The notes under the pieces were generated by a model. It worked only from the letters and a program-made list of their open reading frames with translations. It had not been told where the DNA came from and ran no database searches. A stretch of DNA of 13,512 nucleotides from a virus (taxonomy: Duplodnaviria; Heunggongvirae; Uroviricota; Caudoviricetes): IMG/VR virus record IMGVR_UViG_2693429524_000013; one strand, 5' to 3'. Shown here one piece after another: positions 3,460 through 13,405 of this stretch; within the stretch, counting starts at the first letter, position 1, and each line of letters opens with the position of its first letter. The translations under genes were made by a program, and so were the position numbers.

Positions 3460-3787
3460 TTGATCACCTGCGATTTAAATTAACTCCCCTCAAAGAGTTC
3501 CGGTATAACCTCTCAAACCGCGACAGGCTCGGGCCGAAAAGTTATGCCGGAAATCTAAAGGGAAATTGATACAAGGAAAGGGAGATAGCCCCGCACCGTC
3601 CAAGCGGGGGCTATTCCATATGGGGAAAACCAACAACAGTTGGCTGATAGTTCACAGTATGGTTACGGTTACTAGAGAGCACTATCACGAAAGGCACTCC
3701 CCCGAATCAGTTCAGGCTGCGGTCACATCAGCGGGGAAATACCTTTCGGGATAGCTACCCACACAGAAAACCCGCAAAAGAAAACTG

Positions 3788-3796
3788 TGTGGATAA
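3788..3796 (-). promoter_or_regulatory. perfect DnaA-box consensus TTATCCACA
   Basis: Plus strand reads TGTGGATAA, so the minus strand is TTATCCACA. Overlaps the 3' arm of an 8-bp inverted repeat CCACACAG (3759-3766) / CTGTGTGG (3785-3792). Single occurrence; within the leader of the head operon. Confidence 0.3.
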
Positions 3797-3943
3797 CTAG
3801 CCCAATAGGAGAATTAATCGACCACTCAACGATGATCAGGGTAGTGTTATTTATAAGGCGGCACCGCTACCTGGTCGCCGTTACTTTGGAGGAAAATACG
3901 GCAAATCAAGATCTTCTCACATTGATATTGACGCCATATGTAT

Positions 3944-4195: not shown

Positions 4196-4213
4196 AAATC
4201 AACTTCTCGCAAA
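4196..4213 (+). promoter_or_regulatory. recurrent 18-nt leader motif AAATCAACTTCTCGCAAA, copy 1
   Basis: Exact 18-mer also at 4739-4756. In both cases it ends 11 nt before an ATG, with a purine-rich SD in between. Confidence 0.5.
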
Positions 4214-4738: not shown

Positions 4739-4756
4739 AAATCAACTTCTCGCAAA
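4739..4756 (+). promoter_or_regulatory. recurrent 18-nt leader motif, copy 2
   Basis: Identical to 4196-4213. Ends 11 nt before the ATG of the membrane-protein gene (4768). Confidence 0.5.
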
Positions 4757-5296: not shown

Positions 5297-5318
5297 GGGG
5301 GCCATCACGGCCCCTTTT
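5297..5318 (+). terminator. rho-independent terminator after the membrane-protein gene
   Basis: GC-rich 6-bp stem GGGGCC/GGCCCC with 5-nt loop, followed by TTTT (5315-5318). Lies 8 nt past the stop at 5289. Confidence 0.6.
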
Positions 5319-5404
5319 CTATTTCCAGTCGCTATAGCTCCTGAGTAATTCCACTCCCTGAGGTCGTGATCAATTCCACACCCTACCCCCTGATCAATTA
5401 ACCC

Positions 5405-5448
5405 CTATTTAATGGGTATTTAATGCCTATTTATTGATTTAATCCGTT
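5405..5448. repeat. AT-rich 11-bp tandem repeats (3-4 units)
   Basis: ctatttaatgg / gtatttaatgc / ctatttattga / tttaatccgtt in perfect tandem from 5405. Period is about one helical turn; candidate DNA-unwinding or bending element. Confidence 0.5.
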
Positions 5449-5514
5449 TTATGCCACAACCGCCCGGTTGACAGAGTAAGAGAGAGGGTGTAACCCTTTT
5501 TCGTAATACTAATG

Positions 5515-5530
5515 AAATCAATAAGTTAGC
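5515..5530 (+). repeat. 16-nt direct repeat AAATCAATAAGTTAGC, copy 1
   Basis: Exact 16-mer also at 13259-13274. Both copies are preceded 13-14 nt upstream by TAATA(C/T)T and lie shortly after a gene end. Confidence 0.5.
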
Positions 5531-6618
5531 TTAATAGGCCTTTTCTCTATTTTTGTCAAATTTAACATACCCTAAAAAACTGCAAAATCTGGCTGCAAGA
5601 TTATCTGCAGCTGGATTTCTTACACCTCATTTTGTGGTATCACCCTGACTAGTTTGTGCATAAATTGAACAGTTTTTAACATTTCCTCTTCACCTGGTAA
5701 CCACACAAAAAGCTAAAAACGAGGCACAGATAATCTTAGAGGCCTATTTTCTTGTTATCACTCTGGAAACGTCGTAGAAGTGATTTTGATGAAAGGCGAC
5801 CTACCCTATTACACCCCCATTTTTTGTTATCACAATTGCATCCTGTGTGGCTATATGGCTATGTGCTGAAAGCGGTCTCGGGTGTGGGTGTCAGAAATAT
5901 CCATTAGCGGTATTTGAGCTTATGGGTAACTCGTCTGAGGTGCCAGGCAGGCGCTCCCCTACCTCCCTTTTTTCTTCTAACAATTCTCAAATATCACACC
6001 ACTGCCCACCACGTTGCTATTATGTTAATTCTTAAGCTTTGCTGTATGTTGTGCACATTATTTATTCAGGTGGCTGTACGTAAATTCTGTGCCCACTGAT
6101 CATGATTTTTAAATCAGATTTTGTAGTGCGGTTTCTTAGTGCTGATAAGATCTATTATGTTAAATGCAATTTTCCCAACCCTTCAAATCAATGACTTACA
6201 TGTAAGCATGCACTAACACCACACACAGCACATTAGACGTATAGATGGCTATATCCCACATATTTGATTGTTTTGTAGTCATTCCCCTGATCATTTAACC
6301 AGTATAGTTTGTTATCTGCAGACCACAAAATCGGAATTTACATCTGATTAACATAATCTGTTAGCATGATCACCATTACCCACACAACAATAACCCCATG
6401 TAAGCCTCTTCAGGCAATTTATCGGCGTGTTGGTGTGAACAGTCTTTCATGTTCTTTATGTATCAGTTGTCCTGTGTGGTGATTTGGTGGACTGCCCCAG
6501 GGGCCATACTTATGATGCCCGGTCAACATAGCTGTTGATAAAATCAACGGGTGTTGACCTGCATATTTCCCACACATGAGAGGAAATCAGAGCAAAGAGA
6601 GAGGAGAGAGGTTTGTTA

Positions 6619-6668
6619 GTCACATATGGTGATTTGAGCTCATCTCAAACCTTCTACGAAGGCCTTTG
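6619..6668. repeat. tandem-hairpin element, copy A
   Basis: Hairpin 1: TTTGAG (6633-6638) / CTCAAA (6644-6649). CC linker. Hairpin 2: CCTTC (6650-6654) / GAAGG (6658-6662) with loop TAC. Flanked by TCACAT..GGTGATTTGAG and GGCCTTTG. Homologous to copy B. Confidence 0.5.
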
Positions 6669-6719
6669 CTAGTCAAAATCAAGTCACATTAGAGTCAAAT
6701 CAGATGCAATCAATCCCCC

Positions 6720-6778
6720 ACCTGTTGGGATTTCCCACATGTTCAACCATACACAGGAGCTAACCTGTTGGGATTTCC
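6720..6778. repeat. pair of 16-bp direct repeats ACCTGTTGGGATTTCC
   Basis: Identical 16-mers at 6720-6735 and 6763-6778 (43 bp apart). They share the ACCTGT core with the iterons immediately downstream. Confidence 0.6.
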
Positions 6779-6813
6779 TACAACCCCTTTCAGTCATACT
6801 CAGGCACCACACC

Positions 6814-7054
6814 CCGGTAAATATTTCCCTACTACCCCGGAGAATTTCTCCGCACTACCTGTAAAGAATTTTCACACCTGTGTGTTTATACAATCATACT
6901 CTCCTGTTTTGCAGTCATTGCACCCATGATACACAGCCCTAACCTGTAAAATATTTTTACTACCCCGCCAATAATACGGCCCATACCTGTAAAATATTTT
7001 TACTACTACCTGTCAAAATCTTTTACTACTACCTGTAAAAATATTTGACACTAA
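6814..7054. repeat. iteron array: six direct repeats of a ~21-23 bp unit
   Basis: Copies of CCTGTAAAATATTTTTACTAC-like units start at 6814, 6858, 6953, 6986, 7009 and 7032. The last three are exactly tandem at 23-bp spacing. Same orientation throughout; no ORF. Confidence 0.7.
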
Positions 7055-7101
7055 TAGATAAAGTAATAGACCACACAATAGATCCCCCTAACCCCCCAGG
7101 G

Positions 7102-7142
7102 GGGAATGGGGAGGGATCAGAGAGTGGGGAAGGTTTTCTAAG
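7102..7142. other. C6-A-G6 palindrome followed by G-tract-rich block
   Basis: CCCCCCAGGGGGG (7102-7114) followed by GGGGGGAATGGGGAGGGATCAGAGAGTGGGGAAGG. Four G-runs of 3 or more; possible G-quadruplex on the plus strand. Confidence 0.35.
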
Positions 7143-7245
7143 GGAAAAGCTTAACCCACAAATGAAAGCCTAAAGAGCATTAGCGACTCTTTAGGCAATC
7201 TGTGTGTGGGGTGACAATGTATTCCATACATGACACGTCACCCTG

Positions 7246-7316
7246 CTCACATGTGTGGTCCACTTCGTGGATTTGAGTTCACTCCGTAACTCAAACCCTC
7301 TACGAGGGCCTTGTGT
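7246..7316. repeat. tandem-hairpin element, copy B
   Basis: Hairpin 1: TTTGAGTT (7272-7279) / AACTCAAA (7288-7295). CC linker. Hairpin 2: CCCTC (7296-7300) / GAGGG (7304-7308) with loop TAC. Differs from copy A by a T-A to C-G double change that keeps the pair. Confidence 0.5.
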
Positions 7317-7410
7317 GGGGAGCGTAGTGCGATAGCACGTAGCTATATAATGTGGAGTCCGGATAAGAGACTTCTGTTTCCAATCCGGACCGTTTAAGCG
7401 AGTGGTTTCT

Positions 7411-7436
7411 CGCGCGCGTGCACGCACACATATATA
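7411..7436. other. 26-nt perfect alternating pyrimidine-purine tract (Z-DNA-prone)
   Basis: CGCGCGCGTGCACGCACACATATATA alternates pyrimidine/purine without a break for 26 nt. Read directly from the sequence. Confidence 0.5.
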
Positions 7437-7616
7437 AAGGATACACTCATAAATCGAAAATAAGGCCCCTAAATGGCCTTCTGGCTGCATTAACTAGTTT
7501 GAGTAGTGTAATTGCATTACCTGATGCTCAAATCGCGTTGTAGGGCCTCTTATGATGTTTGAGTTTAACACCCTCCAAAGTTTTAACAAAAAGTGCTCTC
7601 CCTCCATTGTGGGCCA

Positions 7617-7646
7617 TTGACAATCTTATTGCATAAATGCTATAAG
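7617..7646 (+). promoter_or_regulatory. possible second plus-strand promoter
   Basis: TTGACA (7617-7622), 18-bp spacer, TATAAG (7641-7646). Motif CCATTGACAAT recurs at 7745 within a perfect palindrome ATTGACAA-ttgg-TTGTCAAT (7746-7765). Confidence 0.3.
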
Positions 7647-7936
7647 TTATTCTGTTTTTGACACGGTAGGGGACATTAATAATGCTTACCCCTTTGCTGT
7701 GGACTTGTTTGTACCTATAGCTCGCCTAAATGATAATGATTCCCATTGACAATTGGTTGTCAATATGATAAGATTATAGATAGTGGGAGAAACAGATCCG
7801 GAGGTCAACGTGGAACTGAGCGACGCTATAGCGATCATCAACCTGGCTGTAATGTGGTGCGGTGTTGCCTACATAGCCGGAGTAACTGCAATCGACAACC
7901 TTGAAGAAAAAATGATAGATAAATACAAAAAGATTG

Positions 7937-7965
7937 TTGACAATCTCGCAAATAGCTGATAAAAT
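7937..7965 (+). promoter_or_regulatory. sigma70 promoter for the plus-strand operon
   Basis: TTGACA (7937-7942), 17-bp spacer, TAAAAT (7960-7965). The -35 sits in an imperfect palindrome GATTGTTGACAATC. About 120 nt upstream of the first gene (8088). Confidence 0.5.
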
Positions 7966-8016
7966 ATAAAGCATAGGGTAATTCTCATCATAGTGAATTT
8001 TCCTTTAATGAACTGG

Positions 8017-8044
8017 CGGGAGCTATTAGTTCCCGTTTCTTTTT
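8017..8044 (+). terminator. terminator-like hairpin in the leader of the plus-strand operon
   Basis: CGGGA (8017-8021), 9-nt loop, TCCCG (8031-8035), then TTTCTTTTT (8036-8044). Lies between the promoter at 7937-7965 and the first gene. Short stem, so modest confidence. Confidence 0.35.
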
Positions 8045-8087
8045 AACCCTATATCGCACAGGCGGTGAGCTAACAGGAGATTGAATC

Positions 8088-8297
8088 ATGGCTAAAACCG
8101 GACCGATAAGCCAGCTGGTAAACTGGACTACTGACGAAATCGTCGAGAACGTGCTTAAAGGTAACTTTCGCAAAACTTCCGTTTATGCATTTATTCGAAA
8201 ACATAAAGGAGAATATCCACACATTGAAGCGGCAATAGAAAGATTAAACTTTATTAAACTTGAGCGCCAGCTGGAAAGATATAAACATCTGATTTAA
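8088..8297 (+). CDS. small protein (69 aa), possible regulator
   Basis: ORF 8088..8297 with CAGGAGA SD 6 nt upstream. First gene after the promoter at 7937-7965. Basic and small; function not recognised. Confidence 0.55.
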   Translation: MAKTGPISQLVNWTTDEIVENVLKGNFRKTSVYAFIRKHKGEYPHIEAAIERLNFIKLERQLERYKHLI

Positions 8298-8317
8298 TAA
8301 ATAATTGTGAGGGAATT

Positions 8318-9202
8318 ATGGCAAACAATAAACTGGGGGCACATTTCACCCCCATTTTTAAACGTTTTATCAAGTATAATTTTGAAAATCCAATTGCAAA
8401 AACTACAACAGGCAAAGAGAGATTTAATTTAAATGCGACGGAATTGATAATTTACGGGGAAATGGTTGGCTTTCATTTAAACGGCAAAGAAATATTCATC
8501 TCGGAGCAGACCTTAGCAGATGATTGGGATTTTTCAAGACCAACGATTATTAAAGCTATTAAATCTCTAGTAAATGCTGGGATTATTTCTAAAGATAACC
8601 GGAAAGGCAAATCTAACATTTACAAACTGTTAATTACACCTGAGCAGTTTGATAAAATGTGCGATGAGCAGGGTATTAAAACCTTAGACAGTGTGGGAGA
8701 CAGCAAAGAGGCACCTGCTACACAGGCCCAAGATAATCAACAGGAAGCCCCAAAACAAGCCACACAGCAGCCTGAAAAGCCCGAGGCAATGCAATCCCCT
8801 TCCCAACCTAAAAAAGAACACAGAGAACGCCGTAGAGACGCTGGCAAACGTGAAATAGATGAGCACGGTTATCCGATTCTGACAAGCGATGAAATGAATG
8901 CCAGATATAAAGTAATTCAGGCCGCATTTAAAGATCAGAAGAGAATTAAATTATCTGAATTGCGTGATACATTTTACGGGCCGGAGGTGATGGATAAAAT
9001 TAAAGGCACTATTCCTGATAAAATCTGGAAAGAGGAAGATTACTGGCACCTGACAGAGCAGGCCCTTAAGGTAGCTCAACACGTGGTTAAAAGAGGCAAA
9101 TCAATTATTATTGATTCTATTAGTCATGGCTATGATGCACCGAAAGAAAGGTTGTGGAACAACTGCAAGCTTGTAAAAGGCGAATTGACAATTACAAAAT
9201 AA
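8318..9202 (+). CDS. winged-helix DNA-binding protein (294 aa), possibly replication-initiator/organiser-like
   Basis: ORF 8318..9202 with GAGGGA SD. N-terminal pattern (ELIIYGEMVGF...ISEQTLADDWDFSRPTIIKAIKSLVNAGIIS) resembles wHTH domains of phage O-type/DnaD-like replication proteins. Q/P/K-rich low-complexity linker, then a C-terminal domain. Family assignment is inference. Confidence 0.55.
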   Translation: MANNKLGAHFTPIFKRFIKYNFENPIAKTTTGKERFNLNATELIIYGEMVGFHLNGKEIFISEQTLADDWDFSRPTIIKAIKSLVNAGIISKDNRKGKSNIYKLLITPEQFDKMCDEQGIKTLDSVGDSKEAPATQAQDNQQEAPKQATQQPEKPEAMQSPSQPKKEHRERRRDAGKREIDEHGYPILTSDEMNARYKVIQAAFKDQKRIKLSELRDTFYGPEVMDKIKGTIPDKIWKEEDYWHLTEQALKVAQHVVKRGKSIIIDSISHGYDAPKERLWNNCKLVKGELTITK

Positions 9203-9240
9203 ACATTCTTATTTTTAAGTTCATCAAAGGAAAATTTAAA

Positions 9241-9387
9241 ATGTATGGCGATTTTGATTATTACCTGGAAAAGGAAAAATATTTTGAAGATGAACTATCA
9301 CAACATTTTTCATATTGGGAAGAATATTGTGGTTGGTTAGCTGAAGATCCAGCAGATGAAGAAAATGATTCTGACATCCCTTATTAA
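9241..9387 (+). CDS. small acidic protein (48 aa)
   Basis: Track ORF 9154..9387 overlaps the end of the 294-aa gene. Internal ATG at 9241 has AAGG about 10 nt upstream and lies after the upstream stop; shorter form preferred. Confidence 0.4.
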   Translation: MYGDFDYYLEKEKYFEDELSQHFSYWEEYCGWLAEDPADEENDSDIPY

Positions 9388-10503: not shown

Positions 10504-10545
10504 GCACCCTCAAAAAATGGGGGTGCCTTTATTTATCTTACTTTT
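10504..10545 (+). terminator. terminator-like hairpin between regulatory genes and chaperone/tape-measure genes
   Basis: GCACCC (10504-10509) / GGGTGC (10521-10526) stem with 11-nt loop, followed by T-rich CTTTATTTATCTTACTTTT. Confidence 0.4.
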
Positions 10546-13361: not shown

Positions 13362-13405
13362 CCTGCTAACAAAAATCAACCTCTCGCGAGACTAATGTTA
13401 GCAGG
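13362..13405. repeat. 10-bp inverted repeat enclosing a variant of the recurrent motif
   Basis: CCTGCTAACA (13362-13371) / TGTTAGCAGG (13396-13405) flank a 24-nt loop containing AAATCAACCTCTCGCGAG (13373-13390). The loop itself holds the perfect palindrome TCTCGCGAGA (13382-13391). Confidence 0.5.

Follow-up and report, generated by a model that had tools for sequence, protein, structure and literature searches.

The window, that is, the whole stretch of DNA analysed here (IMG/VR virus record IMGVR_UViG_2693429524_000013), comprises 13,512 bases and is essentially an entire circular element. On its plus strand a near-consensus promoter at 7937 is followed by an intrinsic terminator at 8015-8044, ahead of an operon that includes the replication initiator gene (rep). 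Both elements are conserved among the relatives. The leader between them is complementary to the translation start of the gene behind rep, and leader and target co-vary. We propose that promoter and terminator probably constitute the gene for an antisense-type regulatory RNA of about 72 nt and at the same time throttle entry into the rep operon. We infer accumulation of the short RNA, its action in trans and a repressive effect.

Promoter, terminator and predicted leader RNA

The original prediction placed a promoter at 7937-7965 and, ahead of position 8088, a hairpin with a U-tract. Both were confirmed and are kept in 24 sequences of the family, with the -35 and -10 hexamers and the T-tract invariant in 24 of 24. 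The promoter consists of TTGACA (7937-7942), a 17-nt spacer and TAAAAT (7960-7965) preceded by TG, and scores 11/12. Sites of at least 11/12 with TG were observed twice in the window, as compared to 0.026 expected per dinucleotide shuffle. The other one is the perfect-consensus promoter of the capsid operon (3972-3944, minus strand), a clear paralogue of the promoter at 7937 (GTTGACAAT-N11-CTGATAWAATATA).

Ten pairs around the loop AUU make up the terminator stem-loop (8015-8037), with TTTCTTTTT behind it reaching 8044. Its energy is approximately -13 kcal/mol in the window; across the relatives the hairpin ranges from 8 to 11 bp and from -10 to -14 kcal/mol. On the classical hairpin/T-tract score it is the top-scoring terminator of the element, and with a GC-rich hairpin directly before a U-tract it has the make-up predicted for an intrinsic terminator. 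The hairpin survives an A-U to G·U change, a matched deletion in both arms (L007) and replacement of the whole sequence (type B, L011/L016). The type B leader (CP134895/L016) is unalignable with the others, yet its 3' end reads GCUGGG-loop-CCCAGC-UUCUUUUUU.

Because a strong promoter precedes a real terminator, an RNA of about 70 nt is expected as the main product. Such a short transcript had been anticipated in the original prediction; anatomy and conservation support it, the RNA itself being predicted. With its start placed from the position of the -10 hexamer, the 73-nt RNA 7972-8044 folds into two hairpins with a minimum free energy (MFE) of -20.6 kcal/mol (z = -3.2 against shuffles). The U-rich linker and the long U-tail of this predicted small RNA (sRNA) are suggestive of Hfq binding. 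Three further candidates in this region were rejected: an outer stem AUAGGGU/ACCCUAU around the terminator and an RfaH ops-like GGCGGTGAGCT past it, neither of which is conserved in the relatives, and a leader peptide MNWRELLVPVSF, for which most relatives have no ATG.

The open reading frame (ORF) at 8088, called ORF69, is not the first gene of the plus strand, as had been assumed: a conserved gene for a 49-residue membrane peptide, ORF49, lies upstream with its own promoter (Table 1). ORF49 is annotated in RefSeq relatives, its start alternates between GTG and ATG, and its changes are mainly synonymous; it gave no protein-family match. The promoter at 7937 overlaps codons 43-49 and the stop codon of ORF49, so that the terminator is common to both units, and transcripts from the promoter at 7746 are expected to enter it as well. 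No promoter-like site was found between the T-tract and the ATG of ORF69 (8045-8087) or inside ORF69 ahead of rep. As no promoter lies between the T-tract and rep, rep would be transcribed only through read-through of the leader terminator.

An extended -35 sequence, GTTGACAAT, is common to the three main promoters (7745-7765, 7936-7955 and 3973-3950). Most relatives have a second TTGAC(A/G)AAT-like copy 8-11 nt downstream of it, and in the window the copy at 7746 makes the palindrome ATTGACAATTGGTTGTCAAT. The shared sequence may be a common operator for one of the small helix-turn-helix (HTH) proteins. A likeness of the -10 region to the iterons, which would point to autoregulation by Rep, was rejected, as the iterons vary or are absent in the relatives and the -10 is invariant. 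The spacer of the promoter at 7937 had been said to carry the core of a recurrent leader motif. TCTCGCAAA is indeed present at 7944-7952, a trait that the window shares with L003 and L027 alone; the remaining relatives have TTGACGAATGT/C or CTAGCAAATAG instead. Since few relatives have it, while the true motif UCAACUUCUCGCAAA[A/G]GG before two start codons is invariant, we consider the likeness coincidental.

Complementarity and co-variation of leader and target

The first 45 nt of the leader were compared with the translation-initiation region (TIR) of each of the 17 genes of the element, with 300 shuffled leaders as control. The TIR of ORF48, the small gene behind rep, is the sole strong partner (-27.7 kcal/mol versus -10.4±2.8 for the shuffles, z -6.1, 0/300). 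Independently, an inverted-repeat tool returned the arms 7989-8014 and 9218-9243, which are 26 nt long, 85% complementary and 1,203 nt apart. By our own calculation, the match of 18 of 19 nt has an expected frequency of approximately 3e-4 in the element. From the intergenic sequence 5' of the Shine-Dalgarno (SD) sequence, the duplex extends across AAAGGAAAA and the AUG at 9241 and takes in codons 2-4 of ORF48. On the leader side, the loop and the 3' arm of the hairpin take part, together with the unpaired linker. Of 12 complete or near-complete plasmids, 11 have the TIR of the gene behind rep as the leader's top 20-nt Watson-Crick complement on the operon strand, with matches of 16-19/20 against 14-15/20 for the runner-up. 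A pairing of the leader with the rV5-like phage MaxTheCat was rejected, as the 100 kb compared gave nothing past an 11-mer.

The relatives provide five type A leaders (v1-v5) and the non-homologous type B. The leader sequences and their targets are UUUUCCUUUAAUGAACU and AGUUCAUCAAAGGAAAA in v1 (window, L027), UUUCCUUUAGUAGACUG and CAGUAUUCUAAAGGAAA in v2 (L001, L002, L036 and others), UUUCCUUAAACAAAAAU and AUUUUUGUUUAAGGAAA in v3 (L010, L026, L030-32), UUUCCUUAAUUAACUG and CAGUUAAUUAAGGAAA in v4 (L015), UUUUCCUUUAAUUAACUG and CAGUUAAUUAAAGGAAAA in v5 (L028, L029), and GCUCAUAAAAACUUCUC and GAGAUUUUAUUAUGAGCA in type B (L016). Within the leader, variation is greatest in the linker, and the target varies along with the linker. 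A column-based co-variation count on a MAFFT alignment was dropped, because indels in the T-run shifted the pairs out of register, and was replaced by duplexes calculated per variant and by a cross-matrix. The matched duplexes of the six variants have 23-31 bp and -26 to -31.6 kcal/mol. In the 6x6 matrix, six of six leaders prefer their own target, for which the chance under random assignment is 1 in 720. In v4, v5 and type B (L015, L028 and L016) the gene behind rep is a different small ORF, and the leader is altered to fit its first codons. Since the leaders match differing genes, the pairing tracks the position and the start site and not one particular gene. Moreover, the pair stays matched through recombination, because one leader type accompanies different rep modules (window versus L027, L026 versus L030).

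The target proteins are of three unrelated kinds, all small and very acidic, with the endings ...DSDIPY, ...DSAIPY and ...DDDYDEDY. These endings resemble the C-terminal tip of SSB, DDDIPF. As a speculation, this likeness hints at a replication-linked or toxic function of the target proteins.

Table 1. Positions of the features of the promoter-leader region, its target and the gene blocks of the element
Feature	Position	Strand	Description
ORF49 upstream promoter	7746..7774	+	TTGACA-17-TAAGAT with TG, 10/12; conserved in all relatives
ORF49	7810..7959	+	gene for 49-aa single-pass membrane peptide; GTG start, SD GGAGG
Sigma-70 promoter	7937..7965	+	near-consensus, extended -10: TTGACA-17-TGaTAAAAT
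Predicted leader RNA (about 72 nt)	7972..8044	+	5' stem-loop approximately 7975-8005, single-stranded linker 8006-8014, terminator
Antisense core of leader RNA	7989..8014	+	CATAGTGAATTTTCCTTTAATGAACT
Intrinsic terminator	8015..8044	+	GC-rich hairpin 8015-8037 and U-tract 8038-8044; UUUCUUUUU when counted from 8036
ORF69	8088..8297	+	first gene after terminator; helical; E. coli/Shigella only; ATG 8088, SD AGGAG
Replication initiator (rep)	8318..9202	+	lambda O-like/DnaD-like winged-helix N-terminal domain
Target site	9218..9243	+	intergenic sequence, SD AAAGGAAAA (9226-9234), AUG of ORF48 (9241-9243)
ORF48	9241..9387	+	48 aa, very acidic, ends ...ENDSDIPY; annotated WP_001682500.1 in relatives; presumed regulated gene
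Capsid operon		-	HK97-type major capsid protein (phrog_29), Dit-like 'tail tube initiator', tail-completion/Neck1 protein
Plus-strand genes, first part		+	HTH protein and two membrane proteins, then 2.4-kb ORF-poor stretch with iterons
Plus-strand genes, second part		+	ORF49, ORF69, replication initiator, ORF48, several unknown proteins, tape-measure protein

Proposed mechanism, alternative explanations and known systems

According to the proposed mechanism, most transcripts from the promoters at 7937 and ahead of ORF49 would stop at the leader terminator, and a read-through minority would serve as mRNA for ORF69, rep and the genes that follow. The short RNA would pair with the SD, the start codon and the first codons of the acidic-protein gene behind rep and thereby block ribosome binding; the pairing may also expose the mRNA to RNase III, or the downstream genes to Rho-dependent polarity. 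The terminator would thus do two jobs. It would supply the 3' end and the U-tail of the regulator, and it would fix a large excess of regulator over target while leaving enough read-through for Rep. ORF69 and rep, lying upstream of the target, would escape the repression, which fits a plasmid that needs Rep continuously. The role may be control of copy number or incompatibility, or else an immunity-type silencing of distal genes.

Several points weigh against this proposal. The 72-nt RNA, its start site and the termination efficiency are all predicted from the DNA. About half of the antisense core sits in the stem of the first hairpin, which would need to open. One relative, L035/CP020521, keeps promoter, leader and terminator with no complement above background; it has no separate gene behind rep, because the preceding protein carries an acidic ...DSAIPY tail as a fusion. 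The family is narrow (E. coli and Shigella only), and the co-variation therefore rests on six variant classes, which are few; v1, v4 and v5 differ in small steps and cross-pair fairly well. No trigger that would relieve the repression was identified. Furthermore, each read-through mRNA has the same antisense sequence at its own 5' end, so the pairing could be purely intramolecular and the short RNA a by-product.

Elaborated, this last objection becomes the explanation that survives best beside the proposed one, although we judge it unlikely: within the read-through mRNA the 5' leader loops back to the start of ORF48, 1.2-1.8 kb distant, masking it or making an RNase III site, while the terminator is a plain attenuator that merely ends the ORF49 unit and throttles a strong promoter, and the free 72-nt RNA is functionless. 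Lying 56 nt past the stop codon of ORF49, the terminator is in a normal place for that gene, and both pairing arms are on one transcript. The co-variation supports RNA pairing and fits action in cis as well as in trans. However, were its product waste, it would be hard to see why ORF49 contains a near-consensus promoter that mainly feeds a terminator, and intramolecular pairing needs no terminator. The leader has the standard anatomy of an sRNA (5' hairpin, unpaired linker, terminator with long U-tail), and even the non-homologous type B leader retains the layout. Action of a free regulatory RNA in trans is favoured because of this sRNA-like anatomy and the investment in a near-consensus promoter.

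Regulated processive antitermination, in which a Q-, N- or put-like factor of the element or of a helper phage opens the gate, is in our judgement very unlikely. The original prediction had drawn the parallel to lambda pR'-tR' and its 6S RNA, and like lambda the window combines a strong, presumably constitutive promoter and a short terminated leader RNA with a long operon in which no internal promoter was found. A satellite-like element makes helper-dependent induction plausible, and a second terminator-like hairpin lies in the gene array at 10504-10536, after ORF157. Four relatives keep this second hairpin without a U-tract, which weakens the argument. The lambda parallel is not supported: the window lacks a Q-like gene, and its promoter spacer holds no element that the relatives conserve. 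Neither Q nor N nor any other antiterminator family is among the Pfam, PHROG and NCBIfam matches of any protein of the element; the gene directly upstream of the promoter encodes the 49-aa membrane peptide and no Q-family protein. ORF69 was rejected as a candidate antiterminator, as its confident AlphaFold model (pLDDT 88.8) has no significant fold match. At the would-be Q site the promoter spacer varies (CTCGCAAATAG, CTAGCAAATAG or TTGACGAATGT/C) with the leader unchanged. A -10-like TAGGGT at about +3 to +8, the possible pause element, occurs in most type A leaders but not throughout the family: it reads TAGGGA in L015 and is absent in type B. No boxA/boxB-like or put-like RNA was found. Rfam returned no match for the leader at gathering score, and relaxing the cutoff to E up to 5 brought up nothing relevant. 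Moreover, antitermination leaves the co-varying complementarity unexplained, and the 6S RNA of lambda has no co-varying target. Classical attenuation, which had also been proposed, fared no better: there is no conserved leader peptide, and the folds of the variants gave no alternative antiterminator or pre-emptor pairing.

The 26-nt arms might also act as DNA, as recombination sites or cassette boundaries around a variable rep module, and not as RNA partners. They do flank the most variable part of the element, from ORF69 to rep, which is clearly exchanged among the relatives. We nevertheless hold this to be quite improbable, because the sequence drifts while the complementarity persists and because the right arm is always a start site. 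Sites for protein binding or recombination should keep their sequence, which here drifts freely; the right arm comprises SD and start codon even in unrelated target genes, and one arm pair occurs with different inner modules. The segment is inverted in no relative and the element has no recombinase gene, its 86-aa HTH_7-like protein being an HTH protein only. Attenuation of the pT181/pIP501 type, in which an antisense RNA from the opposite strand induces a terminator, is hardly credible: the terminator does lie just upstream of the replication operon as in those plasmids, but there is no minus-strand promoter-like site in or near the leader (7960-8200) and no pre-emptor pairing in any variant. 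A possible countertranscript to rep itself, from an antisense promoter at 8400-8373 with a hairpin at 8354-8334, was rejected, as its -10 is not conserved.

The proposed regulatory RNA has its closest parallels among operon-embedded antisense RNAs. It is not a member of the c4, CI or IsrK families, because it has no Rfam similarity to them (E up to 5). The c4 antisense RNA of P1 and P7 reportedly controls icd-ant in the immI operon, and the co-varying specificity of RNA and target is said to underlie the heteroimmunity of P1 and P7 (Citron & Schuster, Biere et al.). Judged from its sequence, the leader of the window shares the c4-type layout: it precedes its target within one, presumably constitutive, operon, it can pair with the ribosome-binding region of a small gene further downstream, and its specificity co-varies with that of the target. 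There are two differences. The c4 RNA is cut out by processing, whereas the anatomy suggests that the RNA of the window is ended by its own intrinsic terminator; and c4 makes two short loop contacts beside its target, whereas here one duplex of 23-31 bp would form 1.2-1.8 kb away, with ORF69 and rep between. The c4 RNA is a 77-base processed RNA (PMC8546580).

The CI RNA of satellite P4 (seqA/seqB/seqC) derives from a leader, base-pairs with complementary stretches of transcripts that start at the same promoter and holds down replication or lytic genes (PMC4825925). It resembles the predicted RNA as a small leader-derived RNA of a plasmid-capable phage satellite, the satellite status of the window element being plausible only. 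CI is processed, and it acts through premature termination upstream of the replication genes; in the window the replication genes precede the target, and the target is a translation start. For IsrK of Gifsy-1, one promoter yields a short RNA with Rho-independent termination and a long read-through mRNA, on which the short RNA acts in trans (PMC4825925). By its anatomy, the leader matches this arrangement of a terminated short form and a read-through mRNA that would carry the target. IsrK activates translation by remodelling structure near its own 3' end and has no homology to the RNA of the window. Unlike IsrK, the pairing in the window would cover SD and AUG directly and therefore predicts repression at a distant site.

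Copy-number control offers a further comparison. In R1 CopA/CopT, ColIb-P9 Inc RNA and ColE2 RNAI, a small constitutive RNA with two hairpins pairs with the region where translation of a replication-operon gene begins. As in these systems, sequence variants of the predicted RNA would define incompatibility types. The complementarity of copy-number RNAs is automatic, because they are made from the opposite strand of their target; in the window, regulator and target are separate sequences of the same strand, and therefore selection must keep the match. Like sRNAs derived from a 3' untranslated region (DapZ and MicL type), the candidate RNA has its promoter in the 3' end of a coding sequence, ORF49, and shares the terminator of that gene. 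Those sRNAs are chromosomal and Hfq-dependent and have unlinked targets, whereas the target here lies in the operon directly past the shared terminator.

If confirmed, the RNA would be a new, sequence-unrelated case in the small class of operon-embedded antisense regulators (P1 c4, P4 CI, N15 CA, IsrK). Its design would be unusually readable, as the terminator would divide the output of one promoter into regulator and target, and the regulator would pass over the replication genes to act on a gene more than 1 kb away. The natural leader variants would serve as ready-made compensatory mutants. The RNA would also be a first handle on the regulation of an uncharacterised plasmid family with capsid and rV5-like tail genes, maybe a satellite in plasmid form.

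The element, its family and further features

Across the region described here the window is 85-95% identical to nine complete E. coli plasmids, which measure 13.2-13.7 kb; further copies of 13-14 kb occur in metagenome and Logan contigs, and the E. coli plasmid family of about 13.5 kb is present in several hundred assemblies. The 39.6-kb 'plasmid' p3RM10740 (NZ_CP043822.1, L037) consists of three head-to-tail copies of one 13.2-kb unit, with frameshifts scattered through them; it may be a real concatemer or else an artefact of long-read assembly. As one unit is repeated three times, the idea that this record is a cointegrate of different specificity types was rejected. A search for wider relatives that would deepen the co-variation gave none in GTDB genomes or IMG/VR. 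Homologues of the major capsid protein, Rep and ORF69 were found in E. coli/Shigella copies of the element only, and among 72,556 plasmids rep is confined to this family. The profile matches of Rep are phrog_270 (1.3e-10) and eight further replication-initiator or O-like families, together with Pfam HTH_36.

Compared with proteins of rV5-like (Vequintavirinae) virulent myoviruses, the Dit-like tail tube initiator is 51%, the Neck1-like protein 45% and the tape-measure protein 25% identical. No portal, terminase or tube genes were recognised in the element, and the search for a promoter ahead of the tail-chaperone and tape-measure genes was negative. The literature search returned no paper describing the plasmid family. 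Plausibly the element is an undescribed plasmid-borne satellite or hijacker of virulent rV5-like phages; a review of 2025 counts a single plasmid for which phage-satellite status has been demonstrated to date (PMC12282955).

The capsid-operon promoter is followed by an exceptionally structured untranslated leader of about 480 nt (3460-3937, minus strand) with an MFE of -175.9 versus -138.5 for shuffles (z -6.7) and no Rfam match. Its first approximately 58 nt (3880-3937, minus strand) hold the invariant UUUGCCGUAUUUUCCUCC, complementary to the rep start GAGGGAAUUAUGGCAAA (8300-8335, plus strand). The duplex reaches -25.4 versus -13.3±2.8 for shuffles (z -4.4) and ranks first among the 17 start sites. 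In the relatives the pairing ranges from -21 to -27; both sides are nearly invariant, so that co-variation is uninformative here. Capsid-operon leader and rep start may be a second pair of leader RNA and target. The most far-reaching reading takes the predicted 72-nt RNA and its target to be a reprogrammable specificity pair that determines immunity or incompatibility and comes in at least six types, and assigns the pair to an undescribed family of plasmid-borne satellites of virulent rV5-like phages. The pair would control a small acidic protein that mimics the SSB tip with its C-terminus and switches on replication or hijacking, and would maybe be half of a two-RNA circuit with the capsid-operon leader and the rep start. 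We offer this as a doubtful extension, with the odds against it.

Codons 6-12 of rep (8334-8354) contain a hairpin GGGGG...CCCCC followed by a U-run, which persists with altered sequence in divergent Rep variants (GGGGA/UCCCC, GGGG/CCCC) and may be a second attenuator or a translational element. The iteron-like direct repeats at 6720-7049 comprise five ACCTGTAAAATATTTTTAC(TAC) at a spacing of 23 or 43 nt and two ACCTGTTGGGATTTCCCACA. Relatives with other Rep types have different repeats or none, and the region is the probable origin. The stretch from 5300 to 7740, 2.4 kb with no credible ORF, has minus-strand terminator-like hairpins at 7480, 7196 and 7103, downstream of a minus-strand promoter at 7763-7736. 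A 99-aa minus-strand ORF at 7191-7490 was rejected as a repressor gene, as its composition is not protein-like and it has no family match.

The recurrent motif AAATCAACTTCTCGCAAA(A/G)GG stands at 4196-4213 and 4739-4756, directly before the SDs of the genes for a 40-aa and a 173-aa membrane protein. No sequence complementary to AAATCAACTTCTCGCAAA was found in the element. A third, degenerate copy lies within a hairpin at 13373-13390. All three copies are invariant in every relative, and the motif may be a translational operator.

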